Shown here: positions 1,347 to 18,083 of the stretch, piece after piece
How the letters are laid out: each line of letters begins with the position of its first letter
Numbering within the stretch: position 1 is the stretch's first letter
Origin: a virus
Taxonomy: Duplodnaviria > Heunggongvirae > Uroviricota > Caudoviricetes
Direction: 5' to 3' (one strand)
Length of the DNA: 18,083 bases
Virus record (IMG/VR): IMGVR_UViG_2651869755_000020
Made by a program: the position numbers and the translations under genes
The notes under the pieces: generated by a model
Told to the model about the DNA's origin: nothing
Seen by the model: the letters and a program-made list of their open reading frames with translations, nothing else
Database searches by the model: none

Positions 1347-1360
1347 TTTAAGGAGAGAGC

Positions 1361-2314: not shown

Positions 2315-2323
2315 GGAGGCGTT

Positions 2324-2662: not shown

Positions 2663-2663
2663 C

Positions 2664-3574: not shown

Positions 3575-3825
3575 TGAAAGAATACCGCTATTCCGGCCCG
3601 GCCAGCGGCGTCACGCTGTCGGACGGAACCGAAATCCTGCTCTGGCCGGGGAAGACGGTTTCCCTGCCGGAGGAGCATGACTACGTGAAGGTACTGGTGG
3701 CGCTGAAGCATCTGACGCCGGTACCAGAAGATACTAAACCCGCCGTCACACCGGCTGTGCAGTCACCAAAGCGCAGAAGCAGCAGTGACAGCGAAGTGAA
3801 AACGGAGGACGCCCATGGCAGCTAA
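3574..3825 (+). CDS. small phage protein of unknown function (Mu gp38-position)
   Basis: ATG at 3574 with AGGAAA/GAGG upstream, overlapping the upstream stop. The track starts it at GTG 3571. C-terminal tail is Ser/Lys/Glu-rich. Overlaps the sheath gene start by 11 nt. Confidence 0.5.
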   Translation: MKEYRYSGPASGVTLSDGTEILLWPGKTVSLPEEHDYVKVLVALKHLTPVPEDTKPAVTPAVQSPKRRSSSDSEVKTEDAHGS

Positions 3826-5242
3826 CTATCTGCATGGTCCCGAAACCATTGAGGTGGAAAACGGAGCCCGCCCGGTTAAAACGGTGAAATCTGCCGTTAT
3901 TGGCCTGATTGGTACCGCCCCGATGGGGGATGTCAATACGCTGGTACAGTGCCTGTCTGAGAAAGACGCAGCGGCATTTGGCAGCCAGTTCACCGGCTTT
4001 ACCATTCCGCAGGCGCTGGATGCGATTTATGACCATGGTGCAGGCACCGTTCTGGTCATTAACGTCCTCGACCCGGCGAAACATAAAACGGCGATCGAGG
4101 ATGAGGTGGTTACCTTTGACAAATCGACAGGGCAGGCCAGACTGGCGCATCCGGTTGTCGCTAATGTGGTGGTGAAAAACAGTGAAGGCAGCACCACCCA
4201 CACGGCGAACACGGACTACCGTGTTGATGCGCAGGCGGGTGTGCTCACGAACCTGGGCAAGGCTATTGAGGCCGGTGGCAGCGTGAAGGTGAGCTATGAG
4301 TACGCGGACCCGTCGAAGGTGACTGCGGCGGACATCATCGGCGGGGTGAACAGCGCCGGAAACCGAACCGGCATGAAGCTGCTTAACGACAGCTTCAACC
4401 TGTACGGCTATTTCGCCAAAATTCTGATTGCGCCGGTGTTCTGCACCCAGAAGAGTGTCGCAGTTGAGCTTATCGCCATGGCAGAGAAGCTGGGCGCGGT
4501 AACCTACATTGATGCGCCTGTCGGTACCACCTTTGCACAGGCTCTGGCAGGTCGTGGCCCGGAAGGCACCATCAACTTCAATACCAGCTCCGACCGCGTC
4601 CGTCTGTGCTATCCGCATGTGAAGGTATATGACCCGGTGACAAACACAGAGCGTCTGGAGCCGCTCAGCCAGCGTGCAGCAGGTCTGCGTGCCAGAGTCG
4701 ATCTGGACAAGGGCTACTGGTGGTCATCCTCCAATCAGGAGATTCTGGGGATCACCGGCGTGGAGCGCCAGCTGTCCGCGATGATTGATGACCCGCAGAG
4801 TGAGGTGAACCTGCTTAACGAACAGGGGATCACCACGGTATTCAGCAGTTACGGCAGCGGCCTTCGTCTGTGGGGTAACCGGACGGCAGCATGGCCAACG
4901 GTCACCCATATGCGTAACTTTGAGAACGTTCGCCGCACCGGTGATGTGATCAACGAGTCCATTCGTTATTTCAGCCAGCAGTACATCGACATGCCGATTA
5001 CTCAGGCGCTGATTGATGCACTGACGGAGTCGGTCAACGCCTACGGTCGCAAAATGACTGGTGATGGTGCGGTACTGGGCTTCCGTTGCTGGTTTGATCC
5101 GGCCCGCAATCCGGAGACGGAGCTGGCCGCCGGGCACCTGTTGCTGAGCTACAAATATACGCCACCACCGCCGCTGGAGCGACTGACGTTTGAGACTGAG
5201 ATCACCTCGGAATACCTGTTAACCCTGAAAGGGGGCAACTGA
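3815..5242 (+). CDS. contractile tail sheath protein
   Basis: 475-aa ORF with GGAGG RBS at 3803-3807. Size and position (immediately before a roughly 170-aa tube gene) are diagnostic of myovirus sheath proteins. Confidence 0.85.
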   Translation: MAANYLHGPETIEVENGARPVKTVKSAVIGLIGTAPMGDVNTLVQCLSEKDAAAFGSQFTGFTIPQALDAIYDHGAGTVLVINVLDPAKHKTAIEDEVVTFDKSTGQARLAHPVVANVVVKNSEGSTTHTANTDYRVDAQAGVLTNLGKAIEAGGSVKVSYEYADPSKVTAADIIGGVNSAGNRTGMKLLNDSFNLYGYFAKILIAPVFCTQKSVAVELIAMAEKLGAVTYIDAPVGTTFAQALAGRGPEGTINFNTSSDRVRLCYPHVKVYDPVTNTERLEPLSQRAAGLRARVDLDKGYWWSSSNQEILGITGVERQLSAMIDDPQSEVNLLNEQGITTVFSSYGSGLRLWGNRTAAWPTVTHMRNFENVRRTGDVINESIRYFSQQYIDMPITQALIDALTESVNAYGRKMTGDGAVLGFRCWFDPARNPETELAAGHLLLSYKYTPPPPLERLTFETEITSEYLLTLKGGN

Positions 5243-5763
5243 TGTCAAAGATTGAGATAAACCGCATCACGAATGCCAACATCTATCTGGATGGTACTAA
5301 CCTGCTGGGACGGGCTGAGGAAGTCAAACTCCCCGATGTCTCCATGATTATGCAGGAACACAAGGCGCTGGGGATGGTGGGTAAGGTGGAACTCCCGGCT
5401 GGTTTTGACAAGCTGGAAGGCGAAATCAAATGGAACAGCTTTTACCGCGATGCGATGCTGTCTGCCGCGAACCCGTACAGGTCGCTGGCACTGCAGTGTC
5501 GTTCCAGCGTCCAGCGCTACAGCTCGCAGGGGCTGATTGACGAAATCCCGCTGGTCACCTTCCTGACGATTATGTTCAAGAAGAACCCGCTGGGGACGTT
5601 CAAACAGCACGAGAACGCCGAGTTCTCCAGTAGCTTCACCTGCACGTATATCAGACAGGTACTGGATGGTGAAGAGCTGCTGCAACTGGACTATCTGGCC
5701 AACATCTTCCGGGTCGGCGGTGTTGATCAACTGACTGACTACCGTATCAATATCGGGGGCTGA
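5242..5763 (+). CDS. tail tube protein
   Basis: 173-aa ORF whose start overlaps the sheath stop. Classic sheath-tube gene pair. Confidence 0.8.
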   Translation: MSKIEINRITNANIYLDGTNLLGRAEEVKLPDVSMIMQEHKALGMVGKVELPAGFDKLEGEIKWNSFYRDAMLSAANPYRSLALQCRSSVQRYSSQGLIDEIPLVTFLTIMFKKNPLGTFKQHENAEFSSSFTCTYIRQVLDGEELLQLDYLANIFRVGGVDQLTDYRINIGG

Positions 5764-5765
5764 CG

Positions 5766-6047
5766 GTGAGTGTTGAACTGACGGATAAAGGAGGACGATG
5801 TGCGGCACTGGGCATGTCAAATGGTACGTGGTTTACCCTCCTTGATATTCCGGGGGTGGAAACCCTTTTTAATACCCGTAAAACCAATGACCCGATTGAC
5901 TGCACACGTTCAAAGGCCCGCAAACTGGCGGATTTGATTGAAGCATGGGAGCCTCCCGACCACTGGTTCTCCGGCATCGGCAAATCTGAGGGAAAGACGC
6001 TTCTCATCGCTTTCCTGCGTAACTGCAAGGGGTTTCGCACTTGCTGA
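5766..6047 (+). CDS. small hypothetical protein (about 77-93 aa, four Cys); possible accessory (moron-like) gene between tube and chaperone
   Basis: ORF in operon orientation starting at GTG 5766 or in-frame ATG 5814 (AAGGAGGA at 5787-5794). Followed by a hairpin terminator candidate. No family recognised. A 97-aa ORF on the opposite strand covers the same DNA, so the coding strand is not certain. Confidence 0.35.
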   Translation: MSVELTDKGGRCAALGMSNGTWFTLLDIPGVETLFNTRKTNDPIDCTRSKARKLADLIEAWEPPDHWFSGIGKSEGKTLLIAFLRNCKGFRTC

Positions 6048-6053
6048 CATCAC

Positions 6054-6080
6054 AGGGGCTCCGGCCCCTTCTTCTTAATC
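6054..6080 (+). terminator. candidate intrinsic terminator (GC-rich hairpin AGGGGC-TCCG-GCCCCT followed by TTCTTCTT)
   Basis: Perfect 5-6 bp G/C stem at 6054-6069 followed by a T-rich run interrupted by C, directly after the small ORF stop at 6047. Confidence 0.4.
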
Positions 6081-6144
6081 TCCTTTAATATCCGTCACGC
6101 GCTTCTCCCGACATACTGCCCTGAACTTACACAGGAGCACAATC

Positions 6145-6480
6145 ATGTCACAGACCCCATCCGATACTTTTAAATTGTCTTATCCCTTCACCACTGCTGC
6201 AGGCACCAGAATTGAGCTGGTTGAACTGAAACGCCTGACGGTAAAAGACCTGAAGCAGGTGCGCAAAATCAGCAAAAACCCGGCAGACTGGGACGAACCG
6301 CTGATTGCCCGCAGTACTGGTCTTCTCCCGGAAGATCTCGACAATATGGATCTGGCTGATTACCTGCAGTTACAGAAACGATTTCAGCTCATCACGGGGA
6401 TGGGTGAGAGCAACCAGGGCGCTGACGCAGGCGCAGGGGCTGCTGGCGAGATGGTTCCGGTTTCAGCCGGGGGAGATTGA
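6145..6480 (+). CDS. tail assembly chaperone (position equivalent to lambda G / P2 E / Mu gp41)
   Basis: 111-aa ORF with AGGAG RBS 8 nt upstream, located between the tube and tape measure genes. Acidic protein, as expected for tape-measure chaperones. Confidence 0.6.
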   Translation: MSQTPSDTFKLSYPFTTAAGTRIELVELKRLTVKDLKQVRKISKNPADWDEPLIARSTGLLPEDLDNMDLADYLQLQKRFQLITGMGESNQGADAGAGAAGEMVPVSAGGD

Positions 6481-6562
6481 TGCCCTCGATACTGACGATC
6501 TGGAGATGTGGCTGGAGCAGGCTGAAGAGCAAATCAAAAGCGAGTACGGCGACAAATCATAG
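6305..6562 (+). CDS. overlapping second frame; candidate frameshift extension of the tail assembly chaperone
   Basis: Open frame overlapping 6305-6480 in the +1 frame relative to the chaperone and continuing 27 codons beyond its stop (...RFQPGEIDALDTDDLEMWLEQAEEQIKSEYGDKS). Protein-like acidic tail. Position matches the conserved chaperone frameshift of tailed phages. Confidence 0.35.
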   Translation: MPAVLVFSRKISTIWIWLITCSYRNDFSSSRGWVRATRALTQAQGLLARWFRFQPGEIDALDTDDLEMWLEQAEEQIKSEYGDKS

Positions 6563-6637
6563 TACAGACAGCCGCCAGTAGCGGCTGTTCTGCGTTATCC
6601 CCTCACGTCTTTTCACCTTCCCCGGAGGTTAACCACT

Positions 6638-9600
6638 ATGTCGGGACAGTTTTCAGTCGGCGTTGTTATCGGCGGGATGATTGGCAGCACATTCCGTTCT
6701 GCAATGAGCGGTACCCGCCGTGCGCTTGATTCCCTGAGCGATACCTCACGCCGCCTGCAGGAACGTCAGAACGCTTTAACCCGTGCAACAGAACGTTATG
6801 GTCAACTGGGTTCTTCCCGGATGCAGCATCTCAACAGCGAGCTGCTGCGGGTAAGCCGCACCATGGAGCAAATTGAGCGCCAGCAGCGCCGTCTGTCAGC
6901 GGCATCCGCTACCAGTGATGCGCTGAAAGCTAACCGCATGGCGCTGTATGGTCAGGGGATTGAAGCGTATGGCATGGCACAGACTGTTTATCATACGGTT
7001 TCCCCTGCCGTTCAGCAGTCCATGTCTTTTCAGGACAAAATGATTGATATGTCGATCACCGCAAAATATGACAATAAAACGCGGGATGCACTTGCCGGAC
7101 AGATAAAAGGCTGGGCGCTTAAATACAATCAGTATCAGGATGAGCTGCAGGAGGCGGTGGGTTCACTCATCAGCGACAATATTGATAATGTGTCAGATAT
7201 CGGTTTTCTGATGCCGGATATTGCCCGCGCGGCAACGGCAACACGCACGTCTGCTCAGGACTGGGCAAAAGTGGCCGCAGTCTGGCAAAACTCCCTGAAA
7301 GGTGCGGCCAGAGATTTTGGTGCCGTTCAGAATATTATGGCTTATGCCGGTGACCAGGGGTCATTTGAAATCCCGGATCAGGTCAAGTGGATGCAGTCCC
7401 TGGCCCCAATGATGGCGGGTCTTGCCAGTGGAAAAGAGGCTGTTGCTGAAATCGGGGCCAGTCTCCAGATAGCAAAAATCGGTGCAGGTTCCACCGACGA
7501 AGCAGCCAATAATTTTAAAAACTTTCTTACCAAAATTTTTGCCCGCGATACTCAGAAACAGTTTGCTGATCTGGGTATTGATTTGCAGGGATCTATTGCG
7601 AGTTATAAAGCTGCGGGGATCTCTCCGATTGAAGGGATGTTGAGTGTTATAGAACGTTACCTCAATGCCAAAAGCCCCGAAGCGCTGGCCGGCTTCAAAT
7701 CAGCCATGAAAATAAAGAATGATACGGCAAGAGATGAGGCACTTCAGGCTCTGGCGAAAAACTTTGGTCTGGGCGATATGTTCGCGGATATGCAGGTCAT
7801 GGCATTTATCCGCCCGATGCTGGCCAACATGGACAGATATCGAGAGATCCGTGCCGGTGCTCTCAGGGCTGCGGATAACGATTTGCTTGCCAGTGCTTAT
7901 GATCAGCGGCTGAAATCTCCCCTTGAAGCCACTAAAACACTTATGGTCAGCAGTCGCGATCTGGCAATTACGCTGGGCGATCAATTAGCTCCATCTTTTA
8001 TTTCTCTGACTCAGGAACTGCTCCCACTCATTCAGGGGACAAAACACTGGGTAGCGACTCACCCGCAATTTGTCAGTGGGGCTTTTAAGCTCATCAGTGC
8101 GCTCCTTGCGATTAAGATAGCGACTATTGGTCTCAAACTGGGGCTGAATCTCCTTATTTCCCCCTTTGTGAACGTCTGGAAAACTACTGTTTTACTCCGG
8201 ACCAACTGGCATCGACTGACTACCGCACTCGGAGAAGGTGGCAAATTACGCTGGCTTGTCACTGGATTCAGCCGACTGACCAGCGGAGGACTGAAACTCA
8301 GCAAAGTTCTGGCGGGCAGCCTCGTTCGCGGTTTTATGAGCGCTGCACGTGCCGTTCTCTGGATTGGGCGAGCGCTGATGATGAATCCCATCGGTCTCGT
8401 TATCACCGCTGTCGCGACAGCAGCTTACCTTATCTACCGCAACTGGGGGGCTGTCAGTGGTTGGTTTAAACAGCGCTGGGCTGACATTCAGGAAGCCTTT
8501 AACGGCGGCATTGTGGGAATTGGTAAGTTGCTGATTAACTGGTCGCCGGCAGGCCTGCTCTATAAAGCCTTTGCGGCTGCGCTGAAATATTTCGGCGTTG
8601 CTCTGCCGGCAAAGTTCACCGACTTCGGTGGCCATCTTATCGACGGTCTGATTAACGGTATCAAAAGCAAATGGGGGTCGCTCAAATCCAGTGTAACCGG
8701 AATGGGTGACAGCATCAGTAGCTGGTTTAAACAGCGCTGGGCTGACATTCAGGAAGCCTTTAACGGCGGCATTGTGGGAATTGGTAAGTTGCTGATTAAC
8801 TGGTCGCCGGCAGGCCTGCTCTATAAAGCCTTTGCGGCTGCGCTGAAATATTTCGGCGTTGCTCTGCCGGCAAAGTTCACCGACTTCGGTGGCCATCTTA
8901 TCGACGGTCTGATTAACGGTATCAAAAACAAATGGGGGTCGCTCAAATCCAGTGTAACCGGAATGGGTGACAGCATCAGTAGCTGGTTTAAACAGTGCTG
9001 GGCTGACATTCAGGAAGCCTTTAACGGCGGTATCGCGGGAACTGGTAAGCTGCTGATTAACTGGTCGCCGGCAGGTCTGCTCTATAAAGCCTTTGCAGCT
9101 GCGCTGAAATATCTTGGTGTTGATCTGCCGGCAAAGTTCACCGACTTCGGTGGCCATCTTGTCGACGGTCTGATTAACGGTATCAAAAACAAATGGGAGT
9201 CGCTCAAATCCAGTGTAACCGGAATGGGTGACAGCATCAGTGGCTGGTTCAGCGAAAAGCTGGGCATTCATTCGCCGAGCCGCGTGTTTATGGGCTTTGG
9301 TGACAATATCGCGCAGGGGGCCGCCATTGGCCTGCAGCGGACCACTCCGCTTGCAGCTCTGGCCGGGCAGCGAATGGCCAGTGAACTGCTCCCCAGAATG
9401 CCCGTGAGCATTCAGGGGCCAGAAATACGGGATAACACTTCAGGTGTTCGCTTCAGTATGCCGTTGCCCGATATCAATGGGTTTATGTCGTCTGCTAAAA
9501 ATGCGATCGGAGCCGTAATCAATAGTTTGTCTTCCATGCCCGTTATTCCGCTCTCCACCCGGGCATCGATTTTACCAGGGCAACGTCTGGCAAATGAGAT

Positions 9601-9850
9601 GACACCGGATGTTCCCCGTATCCCCTCGCCTGAAATCCTGGCTGCCGGATATTCAGGCCGTGGTGCAGCTGCAACCGGCGGTGGAACGTCTGGTGGTATC
9701 CAGGTCAGCTTTAATCCTCAGTTTTTCCTCAATGGCAGGGAAACCACAGCGCCTGCAGGACTGACTGGTGCCCTGAATATGAGTCTGCATGAGCTGGAAA
9801 AAATGCTGGAGCGTCTGCTGGCTCAGAAACAACGTAAGGAGTACCGCTGA
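6638..9850 (+). CDS. tail tape measure protein
   Basis: 1070-aa ORF with GGAGG RBS, the largest gene, directly downstream of the chaperone pair. Has a long helical N-terminal half and internal tandem repeats. Start of the downstream gene overlaps its stop. Confidence 0.9.
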   Translation: MSGQFSVGVVIGGMIGSTFRSAMSGTRRALDSLSDTSRRLQERQNALTRATERYGQLGSSRMQHLNSELLRVSRTMEQIERQQRRLSAASATSDALKANRMALYGQGIEAYGMAQTVYHTVSPAVQQSMSFQDKMIDMSITAKYDNKTRDALAGQIKGWALKYNQYQDELQEAVGSLISDNIDNVSDIGFLMPDIARAATATRTSAQDWAKVAAVWQNSLKGAARDFGAVQNIMAYAGDQGSFEIPDQVKWMQSLAPMMAGLASGKEAVAEIGASLQIAKIGAGSTDEAANNFKNFLTKIFARDTQKQFADLGIDLQGSIASYKAAGISPIEGMLSVIERYLNAKSPEALAGFKSAMKIKNDTARDEALQALAKNFGLGDMFADMQVMAFIRPMLANMDRYREIRAGALRAADNDLLASAYDQRLKSPLEATKTLMVSSRDLAITLGDQLAPSFISLTQELLPLIQGTKHWVATHPQFVSGAFKLISALLAIKIATIGLKLGLNLLISPFVNVWKTTVLLRTNWHRLTTALGEGGKLRWLVTGFSRLTSGGLKLSKVLAGSLVRGFMSAARAVLWIGRALMMNPIGLVITAVATAAYLIYRNWGAVSGWFKQRWADIQEAFNGGIVGIGKLLINWSPAGLLYKAFAAALKYFGVALPAKFTDFGGHLIDGLINGIKSKWGSLKSSVTGMGDSISSWFKQRWADIQEAFNGGIVGIGKLLINWSPAGLLYKAFAAALKYFGVALPAKFTDFGGHLIDGLINGIKNKWGSLKSSVTGMGDSISSWFKQCWADIQEAFNGGIAGTGKLLINWSPAGLLYKAFAAALKYLGVDLPAKFTDFGGHLVDGLINGIKNKWESLKSSVTGMGDSISGWFSEKLGIHSPSRVFMGFGDNIAQGAAIGLQRTTPLAALAGQRMASELLPRMPVSIQGPEIRDNTSGVRFSMPLPDINGFMSSAKNAIGAVINSLSSMPVIPLSTRASILPGQRLANEMTPDVPRIPSPEILAAGYSGRGAAATGGGTSGGIQVSFNPQFFLNGRETTAPAGLTGALNMSLHELEKMLERLLAQKQRKEYR
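8462..9244 (+). repeat. three tandem 261-bp (87-codon) in-frame repeats inside the tape measure gene
   Basis: Unit begins TGGTTTAAACAGCGCTGGGCTGACATTCAGGAAGCC at 8462, 8723 and 8984. Copies 1 and 2 differ at a single base (AAAAGC vs AAAAAC). Copy 3 carries about a dozen substitutions. Confidence 0.9.
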
Positions 9851-10734
9851 TGTTTGCCGTACTGGGTGATATTGAGTTTGAGCTGATTACCTACTGGGAC
9901 GGCTTCGAGGCCACGTTCGGCGTCGATTATGCGGAGCATGCCCGCATCGGGGGTAAGCCTGGCCTGCAGTTCGTCGGCGACAGGCTGGACGAAATCCAGA
10001 TAACTCTGGTTTTCCATCAGCATTATTGTGTACCCGATGTGGAGCTGGCGAGACTGCGAACAGCCATGAAAGCCCATCAGGCACTGGCGCTGGTCTTCGG
10101 CAACGGTGACTATCGCGGCTGGTTCGTGATTACCGATGTGACTGCAACCAGCGAGCAGACTGACAGTACCGGCAACGTGCTGGCTGTCAGTGCCACCGTG
10201 TCTCTCCGGGAATACACCGGTGACCCGAAAAATCCTCTGCAACCACCGGCAATACGCACGAAGCTCCCGGGTGTCGGGGCGGTCTCCGGTGCCATTCCTT
10301 CACCTTCCGGGGTGGCGCAGTTCATCCGCAACGGCGTCAACTATGCGAAACAGGCGCAGTCTGTACTCCAGACCACTATCAGCGCCGTTCGAGTGACACA
10401 GAAAATGAAGGATAACCCCGTTGTCGCACTGACCCGTGTGCCGGGGCTGATGAGCGGACTGGGTAATATCTCCGGGGCTCTGGGGAAAAGTGTTCCGGCG
10501 TTTAACGCACTCTCTGAATCCATGCCCGATGCCATCAGTCTGGCCAGAACAGCCAGCGAAGCAGCCACGTATGTACAGCAGGCACAGTCTGCGCTGAGTG
10601 GTGTGGACAAAAGAAATATTGCAGGTGCTCTGGATACCGTTTCCGGGCAGCTTAACGCCGTCGGAACAGCATTCAACCGCATGTCTCCGGGATTAAGTGC
10701 AATGGCCGCCAGAATACTGACGAGGAGTGTGTGA
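9850..10734 (+). CDS. tail protein with P2 gpU-like N-terminal domain (Mu gpN / DNA-circularisation protein position)
   Basis: 294-aa ORF with start overlapping the TMP stop. N-terminus (MFAVLGDIEFEL...GKPGLQFVGDRLDEIQITLVFH...GNGDYRGWFVITDV...SLREY) follows the gpU family pattern as I recall it. Sits immediately after the tape measure gene as in Mu. Confidence 0.6.
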   Translation: MFAVLGDIEFELITYWDGFEATFGVDYAEHARIGGKPGLQFVGDRLDEIQITLVFHQHYCVPDVELARLRTAMKAHQALALVFGNGDYRGWFVITDVTATSEQTDSTGNVLAVSATVSLREYTGDPKNPLQPPAIRTKLPGVGAVSGAIPSPSGVAQFIRNGVNYAKQAQSVLQTTISAVRVTQKMKDNPVVALTRVPGLMSGLGNISGALGKSVPAFNALSESMPDAISLARTASEAATYVQQAQSALSGVDKRNIAGALDTVSGQLNAVGTAFNRMSPGLSAMAARILTRSV

Positions 10735-10946
10735 TGTTTCTTGAACATGTTACCCGTGACGGAGAGCGCTGGGATTCGCTGGCATGGCAGTACTACGGTG
10801 ACCCGCTGGGCTATCCCCGGATTATTGCCGCCAATCCGCACGTGGCCATCACGCCGGTGCTGCCCTCCGGGCTGTTGTTACTGATCCCGGTGATTGAGGC
10901 TGAAGAAGCCCGTACAGAAGAGGATATTGCCCCATGGCTGAGATAA
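10731..10946 (+). CDS. tail protein X-like small protein (LysM-like fold family)
   Basis: 71-aa ORF with GAGGAG RBS and ATGA overlap with the upstream stop. Sequence (RWDSLAWQYYGDPLGYPRIIAANPHVA...LPSGLLLLIP) resembles P2 gpX-type proteins that precede gpD homologues. Confidence 0.55.
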   Translation: MMFLEHVTRDGERWDSLAWQYYGDPLGYPRIIAANPHVAITPVLPSGLLLLIPVIEAEEARTEEDIAPWLR

Positions 10947-12106
10947 ACAGCACTGCGCAAGTCACATCAGCGTTAACCGGCGTCAGCGATGTGCTGACAC
11001 CGGTGTTCACTCTGTGGTATCTGCAGAAAAACATCACCTCTGATATCGCGCCTTATGTCACCCGTGTGACCTGGAGCGATAACATCAAAAATGAGTCCGA
11101 TACCATTGAGGTGGAGCTGGACGACACCGATGGCCGCTGGCTGGATAAGTGGTATCCGGGCAAGGGTGACACGCTGACGCTGAAAATGGGCTATCAGGAC
11201 GAGAAGCTGCTGTCCTGCGGTACGTTCTCTATAGACGAGATCGAAGTGAGTTCGCCCGCTTCCGTTGTTTCTATCCGTGGGGTGGCCACCTCGGTTAACA
11301 GTGCCCTGCGGACTAAAACCAGTCGTGGTTTTGAGAACACCACGCTGGCAGCTGTTGCGGGGCGGATTGCCAGAAAGCACCGGCTGAAACTGGTGGGCAG
11401 CATTGAGTCCATCAGAATCGACCGGGTGACCCAGTATGCTGAAACCGACGTGGGTTTTCTGCGCCGGCTGGCCAGCGAGTATGGTTATGCAGTGAAAGTG
11501 GTCAGTGACCAGCTGATTTTTTCTCATCTGGCCACACTGCGCAGTCAGGAGCCGGTCAGGCAGTTAAAACCGCAGGATGTGGCCCGCTTTTCCCTGCGTG
11601 ACACCATCAACCGGGTCTATAAATCTGCAAAGGTAAAACACCAGAAAAGCAGCAGTAAAAAACTGATCGTCTACGAAGCTGATGGTGGTACCCGTGAAAG
11701 CGACAAAAAGCTCAAAGGTGGTAAGGTTACCAGCGCTGACTCACTTAAAGTTAACAGCCGCGTCAGCGACCCGGACAGTGCCCGGATTAAAGCGGATTCA
11801 GCACTGGCCAGACATAACGAATACCAGCAGAACGGCTCCCTGACGCTGACGGGAACACCTCAACTGACAGCAGGCAACAAAATTGAACTGGTGGGTTTTG
11901 GGCAGTTATCCGGGCCATGGCTCATAACCACTGCCCGCCATGCGTTTGACCGTAACAGCGGCTACACCACAGAGCTGGAAGTGGCACGGGGGCCGATCAC
12001 ACAGGGCAAGGCGAAGAAAGGTAAAAAAATCGGCAAAACCCGGATGCTGACCATCTATAAACCGGACGGCAGCACGTCCACAGTAATAAGAGAGAAGAAA
12101 AAATGA
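10934..12106 (+). CDS. tail/baseplate hub protein, P2 gpD-like (Mu gpP position)
   Basis: 390-aa ORF following the X-like gene and preceding the spike gene. Lys-rich C-terminus. Order X-D-V-W-J-I matches Mu/P2-type baseplate modules. Confidence 0.65.
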   Translation: MAEINSTAQVTSALTGVSDVLTPVFTLWYLQKNITSDIAPYVTRVTWSDNIKNESDTIEVELDDTDGRWLDKWYPGKGDTLTLKMGYQDEKLLSCGTFSIDEIEVSSPASVVSIRGVATSVNSALRTKTSRGFENTTLAAVAGRIARKHRLKLVGSIESIRIDRVTQYAETDVGFLRRLASEYGYAVKVVSDQLIFSHLATLRSQEPVRQLKPQDVARFSLRDTINRVYKSAKVKHQKSSSKKLIVYEADGGTRESDKKLKGGKVTSADSLKVNSRVSDPDSARIKADSALARHNEYQQNGSLTLTGTPQLTAGNKIELVGFGQLSGPWLITTARHAFDRNSGYTTELEVARGPITQGKAKKGKKIGKTRMLTIYKPDGSTSTVIREKKK

Positions 12107-12699
12107 CTGGTGTCACTCGTCAGGTCGGTACGGTCAGTGCCGTTGATGCCGACAGGGTTCAGGCCCGCGTTCGTCTGCCTGAATGCGATAACCTGCGCAC
12201 AAACTGGCTTAACGTGCTGCAGCGCAATACCCAGGATAACAAAGATTACTGGCTCCCTGACGTGGGGGAGCAGGTTGAGGTGCTGCTCGATGCCAACGGC
12301 GAGGATGGTGTTATTCTGGGCGCGGTGTATTCAGACGTCGATAAACCACCGTTCAGTGACAAAAATATCCGGGGAACCCGGTTTGCTGATGGTGCAGAGT
12401 ACAGCTACAACCGGAAGACGCACACTCTGATCATCCGGGGCGGCATTGAGCATATTGTCATTGAGTGTGGTGCTGATGTGGTATTGAAAACACAGAAAGC
12501 CACGATTGACGCACCGGAAACCGAACTTACCGGAGATCTGCGTGTCAGGGGTAAGCTGATTTACGAAGGAGGCATGGCGGGTTCTGGTGGTGAAGGTGTT
12601 ACCGCGACCATCCATGGCAATATCGAGATTAAAGGGAATGCCCATGCCACGGGCAGTATGTTGTCTGATGGCGAAAACTCCAGCCACCACTCCCACTGA
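12103..12699 (+). CDS. baseplate spike / assembly protein V-like (Mu gp45 position)
   Basis: 198-aa ORF with start overlapping the upstream stop. Size and sequence character (OB-fold-like N-terminus, Gly-rich C-terminal tip ending SSHHSH) fit gpV-type central spike proteins. Confidence 0.7.
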   Translation: MTGVTRQVGTVSAVDADRVQARVRLPECDNLRTNWLNVLQRNTQDNKDYWLPDVGEQVEVLLDANGEDGVILGAVYSDVDKPPFSDKNIRGTRFADGAEYSYNRKTHTLIIRGGIEHIVIECGADVVLKTQKATIDAPETELTGDLRVRGKLIYEGGMAGSGGEGVTATIHGNIEIKGNAHATGSMLSDGENSSHHSH

Positions 12700-12753
12700 G
12701 CTTTTTAAACGCCTTTAATATCAGCGTTCCCGCACGGGGGCAATACTGCCCCC

Positions 12754-13101
12754 ATGAAAACAACCTCAGTATTCTGGCAACCGACCCTGCAGGCTCCCGG
12801 CGAAATTGTCCGGGGGCTGGATGATATCCGGCAGGCGATTCAAATTATCCTGCGGACTCCCCGCGGCAGCGACCCGCATCGCCCGGAGTTCGGCAGCAAT
12901 CTGCATCTTTATATCGACTGGCCTGTAGACCGGGCCATTCCGCATGTGGTGCGCGAATCCGTCGATGCCATCCGACGCTGGGAGCCCCGCTGCCAGCTTA
13001 TGTCAGTTAAACCCGCCGTCGACGGCGAACATCTTACGCTCCGGGTGAGCTGGAAAGGCTCAGACGGACAGACCCGGACTCAGGAGTTGCTATGGCGCTG
13101 A
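12754..13101 (+). CDS. baseplate wedge protein, gpW / T4 gp25-like
   Basis: 115-aa ORF. Size and position between the spike and the J-like gene are typical of gp25/W lysozyme-fold baseplate proteins. Downstream gene overlaps its 3' end. Confidence 0.7.
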   Translation: MKTTSVFWQPTLQAPGEIVRGLDDIRQAIQIILRTPRGSDPHRPEFGSNLHLYIDWPVDRAIPHVVRESVDAIRRWEPRCQLMSVKPAVDGEHLTLRVSWKGSDGQTRTQELLWR

Positions 13102-14195
13102 CAGAACCCGATTTTATTGAACGCGATGCCGACAAAATCACGGCAGAAATGATTGCGAAGTATGAAGCGGATACCGGCAAAACGCTGTACCCGGCACAGG
13201 CAGAACGTCTGCTGATTGATCTGTGGGCCTATCGCGAAATGCTGGTCAGGGTTGCGGTACAGGAGGCAGCAAAGCAGAATCTGGTCGCCTTTTCACGAGA
13301 GCCGATGATTGATTACCTCGGAGAACTGGTTGGTGTATACCGCCTTGCCGCGCAGCCTGCCACCACCACACTTCAGTTCTCTGTGGATGAGGCACTGACC
13401 ATTGATGTGCTGATCCCGGCAGGCACCCGCGTCAGCGCTTCCGACAGCGTTATTTTTGCCACCGATACAGATGTGGTACTGAAGGCCGGATTGCTGCTGG
13501 TCAATGTCACGTCCACCTGTACCGAACCCGGTACCGCTGGTAACGGCTGGCAACCTGCGCAGGTCAGTCAGTTACTCGATGAGATTGATAACGTCGACCT
13601 GCTGGTGAGCAATCTGACGGCCAGTTCCGGCGGTTCAGAACAGGAAGACGATGACAGGCTCCGGGAGCGTATCAGGCTGGCCCCGGAGTCATTCACCAAT
13701 GCCGGAAGCCGTGGCGCATACCGCTTTCATGCCATGCAGGCCCATCCCAACATTGTCGATGTTGCTGTGCTTTCCCCGGTTCCCGGGACCGTAGATCTGT
13801 ATCCGCTGCTCAGTACCGGTCTGCCGGACGGCGGTGTTCTCACGCTGGTAGAGAGTTTCTGCTCTGATGAGAAAGTCAGGCCACTCACTGATACAGTGCG
13901 GGCTAAAACACCAGTGAAGGTGGATTACACCATTGAAGCCAGGATTACGATCTATCGTGATCAGGATGCCAGGTCTGTAAAAGATGCCGCTAACAGCGCC
14001 ATACAGAACTGGGTGGCATCACGTGCCGCCACGCTGGGGCGTGATATTGTCCCCAGCCAGATTATCAGTGCATTGTCCGTTTCCGGGGTGTACCAGGTTG
14101 AACTGGTGACACCGGCACTGAGGGTGGTGGCAGAAAACGAATGGGCAAACTGTACGGCGATCACACTTAACATGAGTGGAGTGTCTGATGACTGA
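13092..14195 (+). CDS. baseplate protein J-like (Mu gp47 position)
   Basis: 367-aa ORF with AGGAG RBS, overlapping the upstream and downstream genes. Size and position are typical of Baseplate_J family proteins. Confidence 0.75.
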   Translation: MALTEPDFIERDADKITAEMIAKYEADTGKTLYPAQAERLLIDLWAYREMLVRVAVQEAAKQNLVAFSREPMIDYLGELVGVYRLAAQPATTTLQFSVDEALTIDVLIPAGTRVSASDSVIFATDTDVVLKAGLLLVNVTSTCTEPGTAGNGWQPAQVSQLLDEIDNVDLLVSNLTASSGGSEQEDDDRLRERIRLAPESFTNAGSRGAYRFHAMQAHPNIVDVAVLSPVPGTVDLYPLLSTGLPDGGVLTLVESFCSDEKVRPLTDTVRAKTPVKVDYTIEARITIYRDQDARSVKDAANSAIQNWVASRAATLGRDIVPSQIISALSVSGVYQVELVTPALRVVAENEWANCTAITLNMSGVSDD

Positions 14196-14766
14196 GCCAT
14201 TACAACTCCCGCCACCGCTTGAGGGTGATATCAGTCTCAGGACGCTGGGAAGACTGGCAGGGCGGCTGGATAACATCGACCTGAGCGTACTGATGGTCTT
14301 TCTCGTCGATATCGTCGACAGTTCTGCGCTGCCATGGCTGGGCGAGCAGTTCTCACTGTCTGGCGATGGCTGGGAGCTGGCGGAATCGGACGATGTTCGC
14401 CGCATGCTTATAAAAGCAGCCATCGAACTACACCGGTATAAAGGGACGCCGTGGTCAATCCGGGAAGTTATCCGCCGTTTTGGCTTTGGTGAAGTGGATC
14501 TGATTGAAGGCACAGGTCGTCTCAGTTACGACGGCAATCGCAGCTATAACGGACTGTTTGTTCATGGAGATGCAGCCGCCTGGGCGGTTTATCGCGTTAT
14601 TCTGAAACAGCCCATTACTAACGATCAGGCCGCGATGCTGCGTCAGACGCTCGCTGCATTTGCACCGGCCCGCTGCCATCTGGCCAGCCTGGAGTATCAG
14701 TCTGTGGCCATTCGCTATAACAATACCGCCATCCATGATGGCAGTTATAACCACGGGAGCAGTTGA
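14188..14766 (+). CDS. baseplate/tail protein I-like (Mu gp48 position)
   Basis: ATG at 14188 (MTEPLQLPPPLEGD...) is in frame with the track ORF that begins at GTG 14176. It overlaps the upstream stop by 8 nt. 192 aa, immediately before the tail fiber gene as in P2 (I-H) and Mu (R-S). Confidence 0.65.
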   Translation: MTEPLQLPPPLEGDISLRTLGRLAGRLDNIDLSVLMVFLVDIVDSSALPWLGEQFSLSGDGWELAESDDVRRMLIKAAIELHRYKGTPWSIREVIRRFGFGEVDLIEGTGRLSYDGNRSYNGLFVHGDAAAWAVYRVILKQPITNDQAAMLRQTLAAFAPARCHLASLEYQSVAIRYNNTAIHDGSYNHGSS

Positions 14767-14768
14767 TT

Positions 14769-16391
14769 ATGGGAAACCTGAATGAAACAGAAAAGTGGGA
14801 AGAAAAAATCTATCAACTGGAGACATCAGATCCGGTTCTGGGTGGTGCTGACGGGATATCAAATCGAGCCCCCCGGCAACTGGCAAACAGGACGAAATGG
14901 CTGAAGAAAAAAACGGAGGAAGCCGCACAGTCACTGGCTGAACACGTACGTTCCCGTAACCACCCGGACGCGACACTGACAGCTAAGGGGTTCACCCAAC
15001 TGAGCAGTGCCACCAACAGCACCTCTGAAACGCTGGCCGCCACACCAAAAGCCGTCAAGGCTGCATACGACCTTGCAGCCGGCAAGGCACCCGTCAGTCA
15101 CACTCACCCGTGGAGTCAGATAACGGGAGTGCCTGCTGCCTCGCTGACGGCAAAAGGCACCGTACAGCTGAGCAGTGCCACGGACAGTCAATCAGAAACT
15201 GAGGCTGCCACGCCGAAGGCTGTGAAAATCGCGTATGATCTGGCCCGGGGAAAATACACAGCCCAGGATGCAACAACGACCCGTAAAGGGATCGTACAAC
15301 TGAGCAGTGCCACCAACAGCACCTCTGAAACGCTGGCCGCCACACCAAAGGCCGTCAAGGCTGCATATGACCTGGCTGCCGGCAAGGCCCCCGTCAGCCA
15401 CACTCACCCGTGGAGTCAGATAACGGGAGTGCCTGCTGCCTCGCTGACGGCAAAAGGCACCGTACAACTGAGCAGCGCCACGGACAGTCAATCAGAAACT
15501 GAGGCTGCCACGCCGAAGGCGGTCAAGGCTGCATACGACCTTGCAGCCGGCAAGGCGCCCGTCAGCCACACTCACCCGTGGAGTCAGATAACGGGAGTGC
15601 CTGCTGCCTCGCTGACGGCAAAAGGCACCATACAATTGAGCAGTGCCATCAACAGCACGTCTGAAATACTGGCCGCCACACCGAAAGCGGTCAAGGCTGC
15701 ATACGATCTGGCAAACGGAAAACAACCGGCAGATGCCACGCTCACTGCTCTGGCAGGACTTGCCACTGCAGCAGATCGGTTGCCTTATTTTACCGGAGCA
15801 GACCGCGCAGCGCTGGCAACCCTTACAGCTATTGGTCGCGCTATTATCGCTAAGGGCAGTATAAAAGATGTCCTCAATTACCTTGGTTTGGGGGAAGGCT
15901 CTGCACTGCCTGTTGGTGTGCCTGTTCCATGGCCCACCGCCACACCGCCAGCAGGCTGGTTAAAGTGCGACGGGCGCGCCTTTACAAAAGAACAATATCC
16001 TGTTCTGGCCAGAGTCTACCCGACCCTCCGTCTTCCCGATTTGCGCGGTGAGTTTATCCGTGGATGGGACGACGGGCGCAAAGTTGATACGGGGCGTTCA
16101 TTGCTAAGTGGTCAGGCTGCAACATTTATTCGTACAGCTTTGCAGGATTATTACGGTTACGATCTGAATACTAATGTCAAAGTAGGTATCGCTTTTGCTA
16201 CTGCTGATTCTGTTATAACCGTTGGAAACCCAGCTAATCCTAAAGCAGGAAAAAATAGCGATTATGTTCCTGCATCAGCAGATAACTCTATAACGGGTAT
16301 TCAAAGGACAGCGGAGGATAATTTTACCGGGGCATGGATATCAATGCGCCCCCGCAATGTTGCGTTTAATTACATCGTAAGGGCCGCATAA
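14769..16391 (+). CDS. tail fiber protein with internal phage-fiber repeats and a C-terminal collar-type receptor-binding domain
   Basis: 540-aa ORF from ATG 14769 (GGGAG RBS about 10 nt upstream; the track starts at TTG 14763). Five copies of the motif LTAKG-x-QLSSAT-x-S-x-SET-x-AATPKAVK-x-AYDLA, typical of lambda Stf / Mu S / P2 H fibers. C-terminal region (PWPTATPPAGWLKCDGRAF...LPDLRGEFIRGWDDGR) resembles the phage tail collar domain. Confidence 0.85.
   Translation: MGNLNETEKWEEKIYQLETSDPVLGGADGISNRAPRQLANRTKWLKKKTEEAAQSLAEHVRSRNHPDATLTAKGFTQLSSATNSTSETLAATPKAVKAAYDLAAGKAPVSHTHPWSQITGVPAASLTAKGTVQLSSATDSQSETEAATPKAVKIAYDLARGKYTAQDATTTRKGIVQLSSATNSTSETLAATPKAVKAAYDLAAGKAPVSHTHPWSQITGVPAASLTAKGTVQLSSATDSQSETEAATPKAVKAAYDLAAGKAPVSHTHPWSQITGVPAASLTAKGTIQLSSAINSTSEILAATPKAVKAAYDLANGKQPADATLTALAGLATAADRLPYFTGADRAALATLTAIGRAIIAKGSIKDVLNYLGLGEGSALPVGVPVPWPTATPPAGWLKCDGRAFTKEQYPVLARVYPTLRLPDLRGEFIRGWDDGRKVDTGRSLLSGQAATFIRTALQDYYGYDLNTNVKVGIAFATADSVITVGNPANPKAGKNSDYVPASADNSITGIQRTAEDNFTGAWISMRPRNVAFNYIVRAA
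14976..15720 (+). repeat. in-frame direct repeats inside the tail fiber gene (five fiber-repeat units; two about 220-bp stretches nearly identical)
   Basis: Units start near 14976, 15144, 15281, 15445 and 15613. Stretches beginning CAACTGAGCAGTGCCACCAACAGCACCTCTGAAACG at 14997 and 15298 remain near-identical for about 220 bp. Confidence 0.85.
15881..15922 (+). repeat. left inverted repeat of the invertible cassette; overlaps a hix/gix-like crossover site (about 15871-15896, core TT at 15883-15884)
   Basis: CCTTGGTTTGGGGGAAGGCTCTGCACTGCCTGTTGGTGTGCC. Its reverse complement matches 16416-16457 at 40 of 42 positions. The half-sites around the TT core resemble the 12-2-12 recombination sites of Hin/Gin/Cin/Pin invertases. 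Confidence 0.7.
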
Positions 16392-16415
16392 AAACGTTGG
16401 TTTAGGAGAAGGCTC

Positions 16416-16457
16416 GGCACACCAACAGGCAATGCAGAGCCTTCCCCCAAACCAACG
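16416..16457 (-). repeat. right inverted repeat of the invertible cassette (core AA at 16454-16455), about 65 bp upstream of the invertase start
   Basis: GGCACACCAACAGGCAATGCAGAGCCTTCCCCCAAACCAACG is the reverse complement of the left repeat with 2 mismatches. Placement next to the invertase gene mirrors gixR/gin and hixR/hin. Confidence 0.7.
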
Positions 16458-16521
16458 TTTATCTCTCAAATCCTCCCCACATTATCTCAGTACTTTAACC
16501 ACTCAAAAGGGAGTATTTTTA

Positions 16522-17094
16522 ATGCTGATTGGCTACATACGTGTGTCAACAAATGACCAAAACACAGATTTGCAACGCAATGCATTAATGTGCGCAGGAT
16601 GTGAACAGATTTTTGAGGACAAAATGAGCGGAACCAAGTCGGAACGACCAGGCCTGAAACGCGCTTTAAAGTGCCTTAAAAGAGGGGATACATTGGTGGT
16701 CTGGAAGCTGGATCGGTTGGGTAGAAGAATGAAACACCTCATTGCTCTCACAGAAGAGCTACGCGCAAAAGGTGTCAATTTTCGCAGTCTGACGGATTCA
16801 ATCGATACCAGCACTCCGATGGGAAGGTTCTTTTTTCATATGATGGGTGCACTGGCAGAAATGGAGCGTGAACTGATAGTTGAGCGCACGCTGGCAGGAC
16901 TGGCTGCTGCGCGAGCACAAGGAAGAGTTGGAGGACGTCGCCCGAAACTGACGAAGGAGCAGCATGAGCAGATCGCAAGATTGCTCCAGAAAGGGTATGA
17001 CAGAAAGCGGCTGGCAATTATCTATGATATTGGACTGTCAACGATCTACCGCTACCACCCTGTTGGGACTGTCATAACGCAACCTGAAATGTAA
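16522..17094 (+). CDS. site-specific DNA invertase, serine recombinase of the Gin/Pin/Cin/Hin family
   Basis: 190-aa ORF from ATG 16522 (AAAGGGAG RBS). Begins MLIGYIRVSTNDQNTDLQRNAL..., with GDTLVVWKLDRLGR and the C-terminal HTH, near-identical in pattern to Gin/Pin as recalled. The track start at 16432 adds 30 non-conserved residues and overlaps the inverted repeat, so it is rejected. Confidence 0.9.
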   Translation: MLIGYIRVSTNDQNTDLQRNALMCAGCEQIFEDKMSGTKSERPGLKRALKCLKRGDTLVVWKLDRLGRRMKHLIALTEELRAKGVNFRSLTDSIDTSTPMGRFFFHMMGALAEMERELIVERTLAGLAAARAQGRVGGRRPKLTKEQHEQIARLLQKGYDRKRLAIIYDIGLSTIYRYHPVGTVITQPEM

Positions 17095-17172
17095 TTCTTT
17101 TTCAAATAATGAAACGCCGCGTGGATGCCATTTATCGCACAAGATAGAGTGCATTTATCGCGCGGCGCATCA
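17095..17172 (+). mobile_element. putative right terminus (attR end) of the Mu-like prophage with repeated transposase-binding-like motifs
   Basis: Two copies of GCATTTATCGC (17128-17141 and 17149-17163). Terminal sequence ...TTTATCGCGCGGCGCATCA ends in CA and matches my recollection of the Mu right end (...TTTTTCGTGCGCCGCTTCA) at about 15 of 19 positions. Host prpR coding sequence begins immediately after. Confidence 0.5.
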
Positions 17173-17710
17173 CGTCGGCGGGCATCAGCCTGTTCCGGTA
17201 GATGTACGGGTCATTAGCGCCACTCACTGCAATCTGGAAGAAGATATGCAGCAAGGACGTTTTCGCCGTGATCTGTTTTATCGGCTGAGTATTTTGCGTC
17301 TGCAATTGCCACCACTGCGCGAGCGGGTGGCGGATATTCTTCCGCTGGCGGAAAGCTTTTTGAAAGTGTCTCTGGCGGCGCTCTCCGCCCCATTTTCTGC
17401 TGCATTACGCCAGGGGTTACAGGCAAGTGAAACTGTGCTGCTGCACTACGACTGGCCAAGCAATATTCGTGAACTGCGCAATATGATGGAACGACTGGCG
17501 CTGTTTTTAAGTGTGGAACCGACGCCGGATTTAACGCCGCAGTTTATGCAACTGCTACTGCCGGAACTGGCGCGCGAGTCGGCGAAAACTCCCGCTCCAC
17601 GCTTACTGACACCACAACAGGCACTGGAGAAATTTAATGGCGATAAAACAGCAGCGGCGAATTATTTAGGCATCAGCCGGACGACGTTCTGGCGGCGGCT
17701 GAAAAGCTGA
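17173..17710 (+). pseudogene. prpR: 3' fragment (about 180 codons) of the sigma-54-dependent propionate regulator gene, cut by the prophage insertion
   Basis: The frame translates from about 17173 as ...VGGHQPVPVDVRVISATHCNLEEDMQQGRFRRDLFYRL..., the conserved end of a sigma-54 activator AAA+ domain, then a C-terminal Fis-type HTH (NYLGISRTTFWRRLKS). The same frame upstream of about 17170 is not activator-like. Convergent yahO follows after 97 bp, as in the E. coli yahO-prpR arrangement I recall. Confidence 0.7.
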
Positions 17711-17712
17711 AC

Positions 17713-17743
17713 TGCCGAATGCAGCGCGAACGCTTTATCCGGC
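17713..17743. repeat. REP-like palindromic element between the convergent prpR and yahO genes
   Basis: Reverse complement reads GCCGGATAAAGCGTTCGCGCTGCATTCGGCA, resembling the E. coli REP consensus (GCCGGATAAGGCGTTTACGCCGCATCCGGCA-type). Confidence 0.4.
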
Positions 17744-17807
17744 ATAAATTTCAATAGATGATCACCGATAAACTTACGCATCGGAGATGTTTACATAGGA
17801 TTCAGAA

Positions 17808-18083
17808 TTACTTCTTCTTATAAATATTTGCCGTGCCGTGGATCTTATTGTCAGTTTGACCGGAGGTCAGTACCAACACATCAGCCCCTTTTTCATCCGC
17901 TTTTTTGATCAAATCTTCTTTTGCATCTGCAGTCGACATTTCATTGCTGGTTGAAATATCACCTATTTTTTCATACTGCGATTCAACTTTTTCAAATTCC
18001 GCTTTGGTCATCAATTCAGCGGCATAGACATTGGTAACGGCTAACGCTAACGCACCGACTAACATTTTAGAGATTATTTTCAT
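17808..18083 (-). CDS. yahO: small periplasmic DUF1471 (YdgH/BhsA/McbA-type) protein
   Basis: 91-aa ORF with signal peptide ([21 protein letters not shown]) and the C-terminal motif [26 protein letters not shown] typical of DUF1471 proteins. Matches my recollection of E. coli YahO. Start codon is the last three bases of the window. Confidence 0.85.

Follow-up and report, generated by a model that had tools for sequence, protein, structure and literature searches.

Background

Exchange of fiber tips among the Mu, P1 and P2 phages is a textbook route for trading host range. The Min multiple-inversion system of plasmid p15B was reported by Sandmeier et al., 1990 (PNAS), as cited in PMC5903667; Sandmeier's later work on the evolution of fiber genes and the paper of Haggard-Ljungquist, Halling and Calendar, 1992, on the transfer of tail fiber segments among unrelated phages are both cited in PMC8986868.

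The stretch of DNA analyzed here (18,083 nucleotides, "the window") probably includes the host-range end of a Mu-like E. coli prophage, made up of the end of a tail fiber gene, three crossover sites and a DNA invertase of the Gin/Cin type. The best overall explanation, and one that we consider very probable, is that the tip of the fiber was grafted at a joint onto a lineage-specific adapter, with the invertase as a second module that is exchanged independently.

Identity and boundary of the prophage

The backbone belongs to the PhiKM/KP12 group of phages, with 98.8% and 86% DNA identity, respectively. Mu-type head genes (DUF935, F-like and G-like) lie upstream, as seen in a sister genome; the left end of the prophage and its early region fall outside the window. 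Megablast matched 13 phage records, none of them phage Mu itself. A search of the literature on phage PhiKM found nothing relevant. The prophage carries an IS66-family insertion. Its right boundary is marked by the following features:

17095-17172, plus strand: right end of the transposable prophage; identity to copies at other sites stops at 17172
17173-17710, plus strand: host DNA, a C-terminal fragment of a sigma-54 regulator cut by the prophage (Pfam AAA_lid_14 and HTH_8; RefSeq partial sigma-54 regulator beside yahO)

The right end reads ...GCGCA and stops at 17169, its exact position being ambiguous by up to 3 nt. The host fragment lies outside the module and marks its boundary; the interrupted regulator gene next to yahO is presumably prpR. 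What adjoins this right end depends on the strain: an interrupted gene for a sigma-54 regulator, a class II aldolase or a MaoC/PaaZ-type protein, or else ybaP. The presence of this end at different interrupted host genes indicates the transposable nature of the element.

The tail fiber gene

14769-16391, plus strand: tail fiber gene (open reading frame; Pfam; equivalent CDS in RefSeq for KS21 and LC-1302-2020)
14963-15712, plus strand: tandem shaft repeats with 168/132-nt spacing (repeat families D1-D4)

The fiber is laid out as an N-terminal part for baseplate attachment, Phage_fiber_2 shaft repeats, a Collar domain and a variable distal tip. Pfam finds PF03406 in five stretches and PF07484, the Collar domain, at amino acids 385-432 (E = 5.5e-15). 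Copy number of the shaft repeats varies among isolates; the protein has 542 aa here, 640 aa in isolate L002 and 730 aa in isolate L008. Sequences of solved structures, namely T4 gp37 (2XGF) and a short tail fiber (9CUY), match the Collar part only, and an AlphaFold2 model of the 173-aa cassette, built from a 13-sequence alignment, was unusable (mean pLDDT 31). The Collar domain corresponds to positions 15915-16059 and lies inside the GC-rich part of the gene, with about 100 AT-rich residues following it. The original prediction had taken the AT-rich part for a Collar-type tip; that assignment needs correcting, since the AT-rich residues are distal to the domain. Receptor binding by these distal residues is suggested by their position and variability.

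Base composition

The computed G+C content is 55.7% for the phage structural genes (216-14766), 56.8% for the fiber gene 5' of the inverted repeat (14763-15879) and 58.1% for 15880-16089, and then falls to 43.4% at the fiber end (16090-16391). The spacer that follows (16392-16521) has 44.6%, the invertase gene (16522-17094) 48.5%, between the values for tip and backbone, and the right end of the phage (17095-17169) 45.3%, while the host fragment stands at 54%. For the fiber end, about 40% had been estimated by eye; the description of the invertase as intermediate is borne out.

The 302-bp tip lies 3.6 SD under same-size windows from the rest of the phage, as does the 1005-bp interval 16090-17094 when compared with windows of its own size. 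A maximum-likelihood analysis with a single change-point, run over the phage part of the window (248-17169), places the strongest change of the whole prophage at 16097. The log-likelihood ratio there is 19.3, whereas 300 block shuffles gave 8.7 at most, and G+C goes from 55.8% to 46.0% across this point. The shift that had been proposed is therefore significant. It had been placed about 170 bp into the invertible cassette; it begins about 200-215 bp past the crossover dinucleotide at 15883-15884, or about 165-175 bp past the end of the 43-nt repeat arm.

Third codon positions carry most of the change. GC3 is 0.31 in the tip (16086-16391, 43% G+C overall) against 0.609 in the backbone (Fisher p = 2e-9), where the lowest value in any 101-codon window is 0.416, so the drop is mainly synonymous; the invertase, at 0.48, also departs from the backbone (Fisher p = 8e-4). 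GC2 is essentially unchanged (0.49 in the tip, about 0.45 otherwise), and amino-acid composition was accordingly rejected as the cause of the low G+C. The tape-measure gene, too, has a 302-bp window of almost this composition (43.7%, at about 7508). The dip therefore does not stand alone at that scale, and low G+C by itself is no proof of foreign origin.

A mosaic joint within the fiber gene

15885-16085, plus strand: GC-rich "adapter" (58-59% G+C), encoding the Collar domain (block identities, dS)
16086-16391, plus strand: AT-rich distal tip, presumed receptor-binding end (identity to L004-L006, dS, G+C)

Three elements that carry the tip were compared in particular: a 99.6-kb P1-like plasmid with nine cassettes and an invertase (L004), a P2-like prophage recognizable by its P2-type V-W-J-I-H and sheath genes (L005), and the Mu-like prophage A33, with seven or more cassettes (L006). 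The tip, about 306 bp, is 93.8%, 96.1% and 94.5% identical to their respective copies and only 45-51% identical to the sister cassettes of its own lineage. The adapter behaves in the opposite way: it heads every tip cassette in the phage lineage of this prophage, and over the compared block (15926-16084, 159 bp) its identity is 99% with cassette B of KS21 and 91% with cassette C, but no more than 62-67% with the cassettes of L004, L005 and A33. The pattern of block identities switches at 16085/16086. Synonymous divergence (dS) from the three elements runs from 0.12 to 0.20 for the tip but from 1.4 to 2.3 for the adapter, a jump of more than 10-fold across the joint. The fiber is accordingly not colinear with relatives from outside its own lineage; no backbone DNA similarity was found between the window and L005, the rest of whose fiber could not be aligned.

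The high-identity tract starts at 16086; in the P2-like copy it ends at the stop codon, and in the P1-like and A33 copies it runs about 25 bp beyond the stop, to the next crossover site. The final 15 or so codons of the tip are also kept among cassettes. The joint itself lies inside the fiber gene, about 200 bp past the crossover site of the invertase, and the G+C break most probably is this recombination joint. Two families of adapter can be told apart, one with 59% and the other with 48-54% G+C; identity is 79-100% within and 62-71% between them. The uniformity of the adapter within the lineage may reflect ongoing gene conversion, though it could instead come from recent duplication of cassettes.

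The tip was found in 315 of 5426 E. coli genomes, with 250 of the places on plasmids, and is 99.7% identical in over 100 records. That L004-L006 share it while differing in backbone marks it as a horizontally exchanged element, as had been proposed from the composition. Against the phage collection, the tip protein gave distant matches only (37-46% identity, to phages of Yersinia ruckeri, Synechococcus and Burkholderia), and another cassette of this lineage was matched at 42% identity. In the large protein database, all matches to the tip protein came from Enterobacteriaceae. In neither comparison was a homolog that might represent a low-G+C source found outside that family.

An alternative is that tips of this class are AT-rich by nature and not because they are foreign: the encoded amino acids may call for it, selection may act on the DNA or mRNA, or mutation may be AT-biased and turnover fast. 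The break would then be present with no transfer at all. The tip keeps 42-43% G+C in all four backgrounds (this prophage and L004-L006) and is AT-richer than every carrier examined, including the P1-like fiber (48.9%); variable tips as a family, those of P1-like plasmids included, have 41-48% G+C and GC3 of 0.29-0.45 (most of them 0.29-0.36), whatever the background; and no donor taxon of low G+C turned up. The GC2 values speak against the amino-acid version of the idea, and the near-identity of the tip in backbones that are unrelated, along with the 10-fold rise of dS, shows that it was transferred, whatever set the composition. We therefore regard an intrinsic bias as possible but rather unlikely; it accounts for the composition and not for the mosaic, and so is compatible with grafting of the tip, without replacing it as an explanation. 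The direction of the transfer was presumably from the lower-G+C pool of P1- and P2-like elements into this lineage, although, with the tip AT-richer than all of its carriers, none of these is clearly its home in composition.

The invertase

16522-17094, plus strand: serine DNA invertase of the Gin/Cin/Pin/Hin/Min type, 190 aa (Pfam, identity to known invertases)

The protein has a Resolvase domain (PF00239, E = 8e-51, aa 3-135) and an HTH_7 domain (PF02796, aa 138-180). Over 96% of its length it is 72.7% identical to the phage P1 protein annotated as a DNA invertase, and the invertases of P2-like phages come closer, at 83-85%; an identical protein, WP_000904922.1, occurs in several strains. 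A 220-aa open reading frame starting at 16432 was rejected as the invertase, the RefSeq start and a ribosome-binding site both indicating 16522. A scan for promoters and terminators over 15800-17250 gave nothing above the shuffled expectation.

It had been suggested that tip and invertase were acquired together, and we weighed the fuller proposal that one horizontal acquisition brought in the tip, the crossover sites and the invertase as a unit. All of 16086-17172 is indeed AT-richer than the backbone (46% versus 55.8%), and en-bloc replacement of the module does occur in this phage group: the cassettes and invertase of A33, a sibling prophage, share about 88-92% identity with their counterparts on a P1-like plasmid (90% for the invertase), whereas the A33 backbone matches the window at 86-88%. 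But the elements that have the tip at 94-96% identity (L004-L006) carry invertases that are only about 75% identical to this one in DNA. The high-identity tract begins at 16086, so the exchanged unit stops within the cassette and not at the crossover site; site 1 and the tip are separated by an adapter that is GC-rich and particular to the lineage; and tip and invertase differ in GC3 (0.31 versus 0.48). Entry as one cassette thus seems improbable, and the link between tip and invertase that had been suggested is not upheld. For invertases, G+C values of 44.7-51.3% were obtained. In Klebsiella phage KP12, with its backbone at 86% identity, the invertase is just 76% identical in protein. Like the closeness of the A33 invertase to that of the P1-like plasmid, this points to exchange of the invertase in its own right, probably as a separate event, older than that of the tip.

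Under the grafting explanation, each tip cassette of the lineage would begin with a crossover site, followed by an adapter of about 200 bp with the codon usage of the backbone and nearly identical within one phage. The distal tip of about 300 bp would come from a pool circulating among P1-like, P2-like and Mu-like elements and would have been joined by homologous recombination at about 16086-16097. The invertase, a module of intermediate composition, would be exchanged independently of the tip and would swap the 3' end of the fiber by inversion between sites embedded in the reading frame.

Crossover sites, deletion and inversion

15871-15896, plus strand: crossover site 1, 26 bp, central TT at 15883-15884 (inverted repeat I1; consensus match; flipped isolate)
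16385-16410, plus strand: crossover site 2, same orientation as site 1, central TT at 16397-16398 (repeats, consensus)
16416-16418, no strand: deletion junction with 3-bp GGC microhomology (alignment to KS21, L001)
16442-16467, minus strand: crossover site 3, inverted relative to sites 1 and 2, central AA at 16454-16455 (repeats, consensus)

The site consensus, TTCYCCYAAACCAASGT, has exactly three matches in the window, against 0.01 expected, and the sites fit the consensus of the family (TTCYCCYAAACC AA SGTTT...). Site 1 sits in the reading frame of the fiber (...NYLGLGEG...), and the position of site 2 is that which heads cassette B in full-length relatives.

Relative to KS21, 1555 bp are missing, comprising tip B, the tail-fiber assembly gene and tip C: window positions 14701-16418 match L001 1439-3156 (99.9%), and 16416-17172 match L001 4712-5468 (100%). 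The assembly gene of the full-length relatives has 57.7% G+C, i.e., the composition of the backbone. The window retains three sites and one cassette, while KS21 (three tips), A33 and p50EVA-2 have an intact array, and the invertible segment seen here is what the deletion left of a three-tip array. The original prediction, which spoke of an invertible cassette, had missed this.

Isolate MMC-J-0105 (L007) shares with the window both the insertion next to yahO and the deletion junction, and carries the segment in exactly the flipped form. It is 99.94% identical, over 1551 nt, to an in-silico inversion between sites 1 and 3, and the exchange maps to the interval holding the core dinucleotide. Isolate L008 has the three-tip form, likewise flipped. 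Inversion has thus occurred, and the segment still inverts after the deletion. The flipped form in MMC-J-0105 truncates the fiber; with the other tips deleted, inversion would toggle only between a full and a truncated fiber.

Another reading is that the AT-rich DNA has lost its function in a defective prophage and, with selection relaxed, is drifting toward AT. The IS66-family insertion, the loss of 1555 bp including the assembly gene, and the one isolate with its fiber switched to the truncated form could be read that way. Yet the reading frames of tip and invertase are intact, dN/dS in the tip is 0.13-0.16, which indicates purifying selection, and both the tip (in the 100-odd records mentioned above) and the invertase protein (in several strains) are conserved; inversion took place after the deletion, and intact three-tip relatives show the same composition. 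Decay is largely refuted and we give it hardly any weight. Somewhat less remote, but still poorly favored, is the notion that the one-cassette remnant is a maintained on/off switch, giving particles with or without a functional tip, and, separately, that the adapter is actively homogenized by gene conversion as a docking sequence which captures AT-rich tips from the pool at a fixed joint.

Comparison with known systems

The mechanism is ordinary, and nothing new in it is revealed here. The locus does provide a base-level example of the movement of a host-range determinant, in which the exchanged unit would be the last 100 or so codons of the fiber and not the whole invertible segment, and in which a G+C change-point can place the joint to within about 10 bp. 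This may be of use in annotating the receptor-binding modules of prophages and in picking swap points for fiber engineering.

As in the Min system of p15B and the Cin C-segment of P1, going by their descriptions, a serine invertase adjoins a cluster of cassettes for the 3' end of a fiber gene, a crossover site lies inside the reading frame at the head of each cassette, and the number of sites exceeds two (three here, at least nine in the P1-like plasmid L004). The carrier here, however, is a Mu-like transposable prophage, not a P1-type plasmid, and only one cassette is left, so that the switch is between full and truncated fiber rather than a choice of tips.

In its order of last structural gene, invertible segment and invertase, near the right end, and in its constant 5' fiber part with alternative 3' parts, the locus resembles the Gin/G-segment of Mu, with its Sv-U / S'v-U' switch. 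It differs in that the tips are short Collar-type cassettes (about 170 aa) without an assembly gene of their own, one tfa being shared in the relatives, and in that relatives of this prophage have up to three or more cassettes, not two.

A parallel to the movement of the tip is the segment transfer of the 1992 paper: the tip is 94-96% identical in DNA among Mu-, P1- and P2-like elements that otherwise have unrelated genes or genes that diverge far more. The present case goes beyond that one, on the same principle, in that the mapped joint at 16085/16086 coincides with the G+C change-point and in that a lineage-specific, GC-rich adapter is added.

Base composition of the fiber region

The G+C shift near the end of the tail fiber gene, estimated by eye in the original prediction, was borne out by computed values and a fitted change-point. 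The structural genes average 55.7% G+C and the segment 15880-16089 58.1%, after which the value falls to 43.4% over 16090-16391, with 44.6% in the spacer, 48.5% in the invertase gene and 45.3% in the right end. Fitting a single change-point to the whole phage part places it at 16097, with a log-likelihood ratio of 19.3, against a maximum of 8.7 in 300 block shuffles. The shift is mainly synonymous, GC3 being 0.31 in the tip (the AT-rich distal fiber end), 0.48 in the invertase gene and 0.609 in the backbone, where no 101-codon window falls below 0.416. At the 302-bp scale the dip is not unique, one window in the tape-measure gene being almost equally AT-rich, while the 1-kb low is unique. This weaker tape-measure dip covers about 7250-8000, with a 302-bp minimum of 43.7% at about 7508 and a 500-bp value of 47%. 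The features of the region are as follows.

14769-16391, tail fiber gene, with five stretches of Phage_fiber_2 repeats and a Pfam Collar domain at aa 385-432
15883-15884, core of crossover site 1, within the fiber reading frame
16397-16398, core of crossover site 2, oriented as site 1, directly past the stop codon
16454-16455, core of crossover site 3, inverted
From 16522, invertase gene, 190 aa, with resolvase and HTH_7 domains
17173-18083, host DNA with the interrupted sigma-54 regulator gene

The 17-nt crossover-site consensus has exactly these three matches in the window, where 0.01 would be expected. The Collar domain falls in the GC-rich part of the fiber, and the AT-rich part is the approximately 100 residues beyond it. 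Further upstream, the shaft repeats (14963-15712, units of 168/132 nt) vary in copy number among otherwise near-identical prophages; fiber length is 542 aa in the window against 640 aa in LC-1302-2020 and 730 aa in CD306, indicating that it varies through gain and loss of repeats.

A recombination joint within the fiber gene

The same phage in strain KS21 carries three tip cassettes, A, B and C. The first ~218 bp past each of their crossover sites, here termed the adapter, are 91-99% identical to one another, with 58-59% G+C. The window cassette was compared with these and with cassettes bearing the same tip in a 99.6-kb P1-like plasmid (L004), a P2-like prophage (L005) and another Mu-like prophage (L006).

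Identity and synonymous divergence of the window cassette relative to other cassettes
Adapter, 15926-16084: L004 62%, L005 67%, L006 65%; sister cassettes B 99%, C 91%
Tip, 16085-16391: L004 93.8%, L005 96.1%, L006 94.5%; sister cassettes B and C 45-51%
dS against L004-L006: adapter 1.4-2.3, tip 0.12-0.20

By these comparisons, the G+C break is a recombination joint inside the fiber gene, lying at the conserved motif GWDD.R..D.GR. The tip's dN/dS of 0.13-0.16 marks it as a functional, conserved coding module. There are two adapter families, that of the window lineage at 59% G+C and one with all others at 48-54%; identity is 79-100% inside a family and 62-71% from one to the other. The final ~45 nt are conserved again across all tips, so that a variable core is flanked by two conserved blocks, which can serve for homologous recombination.

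Distribution of the tip

Among 5426 complete E. coli genomes, 315 contain the variable part of the tip, and 250 of the places found lie on plasmids of roughly 92-101 kb; it also occurs in 111 PLSDB plasmids, including those of Klebsiella, Salmonella, Shigella and E. albertii, and protein searches found homologs in Enterobacteriaceae only. It has 42-43% G+C in each of the backgrounds compared, and variable tips of the same family in all three phage types have 41-48% (GC3 0.29-0.45, most 0.29-0.36), while the G+C of the adapters and of the KS21 tail-fiber assembly gene (57.7%) tracks the local backbone.

Arrays of Collar-type tip cassettes, each headed by a crossover site, were seen in the P1-like plasmid (nine, L004 2357-7321) and the Mu-like prophage (seven, L006 4786-8806), with adapters 80-97% identical across both elements; the arrays form a common tip pool far bigger than the two-tip textbook systems.

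The invertase

The invertase is 72.7% identical in protein to that of P1 and 83-85% to those of P2-like phages. KP12 matches the window at 86% in its backbone but at only 76% in its invertase protein, and the sibling prophage A33 has an invertase 90% identical to the one in a P1-like plasmid. The invertase is thus incongruent with the backbone, and also with the tip, so invertase modules are exchanged too, but the window's is no recent co-traveler of the tip. It had been proposed that tip and invertase were acquired as one cassette; the tip is indeed a horizontally exchanged module, but the two probably do not form a single cassette, since in elements with 94-96% tip identity the invertase matches the window's at only about 75% in DNA.

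A deletion remnant that still inverts

In KS21, cassette A has a tip identical to the window's, B is followed by the tail-fiber assembly gene, C lies on the opposite strand, and an invertase identical to the window's comes after all three. The window corresponds to KS21 minus 1555 bp, having lost tip B, the assembly gene (none remains in the window) and tip C. The junction, at 16416-16418, has a 3-bp GGC microhomology, and the deletion lies between the inverted ~218-bp heads of B and C, a long inverted repeat that would have favored slipped or illegitimate recombination as its cause. As a result, two crossover sites face each other head to head (16385-16467), with 57 bp between their centres. 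In the P2-like prophage the same tip is followed directly by a tail-fiber assembly gene.

The predicted product of inversion between sites 1 and 3 was built and searched against E. coli genomes. It was matched over 1551 nt with one mismatch in E. coli MMC-J-0105 (L007 2866-4416, against window 15700-17250), which shares both the insertion site and the deletion junction; this is natural evidence of invertase action after the deletion, and the switch thus still works. Sequence differences between the arms map the exchange to 15882-15906, surrounding the predicted core. In the flipped orientation the fiber ends early (...PVGVPSLLLNQRFYAALTM*), without the Collar domain and tip. Flipped three-tip forms are present in many genomes.

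The prophage and its insertion site

The window covers the late (structural) half of a prophage, its right end and, beyond that, host DNA; the phage genes are ordered head genes, sheath, tube, tape measure, baseplate J, tail protein I and fiber. In its backbone the prophage shares 98.8% identity with Escherichia phage PhiKM and 86% with Klebsiella phage KP12, and a sister genome has Mu-type genes upstream (a DUF935 portal and F-like and G-like morphogenesis genes). The same right-end sequence adjoins differing interrupted host genes across strains, which is how a transposable, Mu-like phage behaves. In the window its end lies at 17169-17172, within a sigma-54 regulator gene adjoining yahO, which on the E. 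coli map is prpR; regulation of propionate catabolism would therefore be expected to be lost in this strain. The terminal part of an IS66-family element, ISEc23, occupies positions 1-247 and agrees at 100% with copies found in further phage records; in the sister genome it separates the Mu G-like morphogenesis gene from the 376-aa ORF 216-1346. As the ATG at 216 sits in IS-derived DNA, the true start or the expression of this ORF may be altered.

Comparison with known systems

The arrangement is of the classic type of Mu Gin/G and P1 Cin/C, and especially close to p15B Min, in which several invertible segments with fiber 3' ends overlap. Works from 1990-1994 onward, cited in PMC5903667 and PMC8986868, describe how Mu, P1 and P2 exchange fiber segments horizontally, and the targets of programmed inversion are enriched in fiber and tail proteins (PMC9881135). 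The present case brings no new principle; what it contributes is the fine mapping of the joint, an adapter specific to the lineage and a remnant with one cassette.
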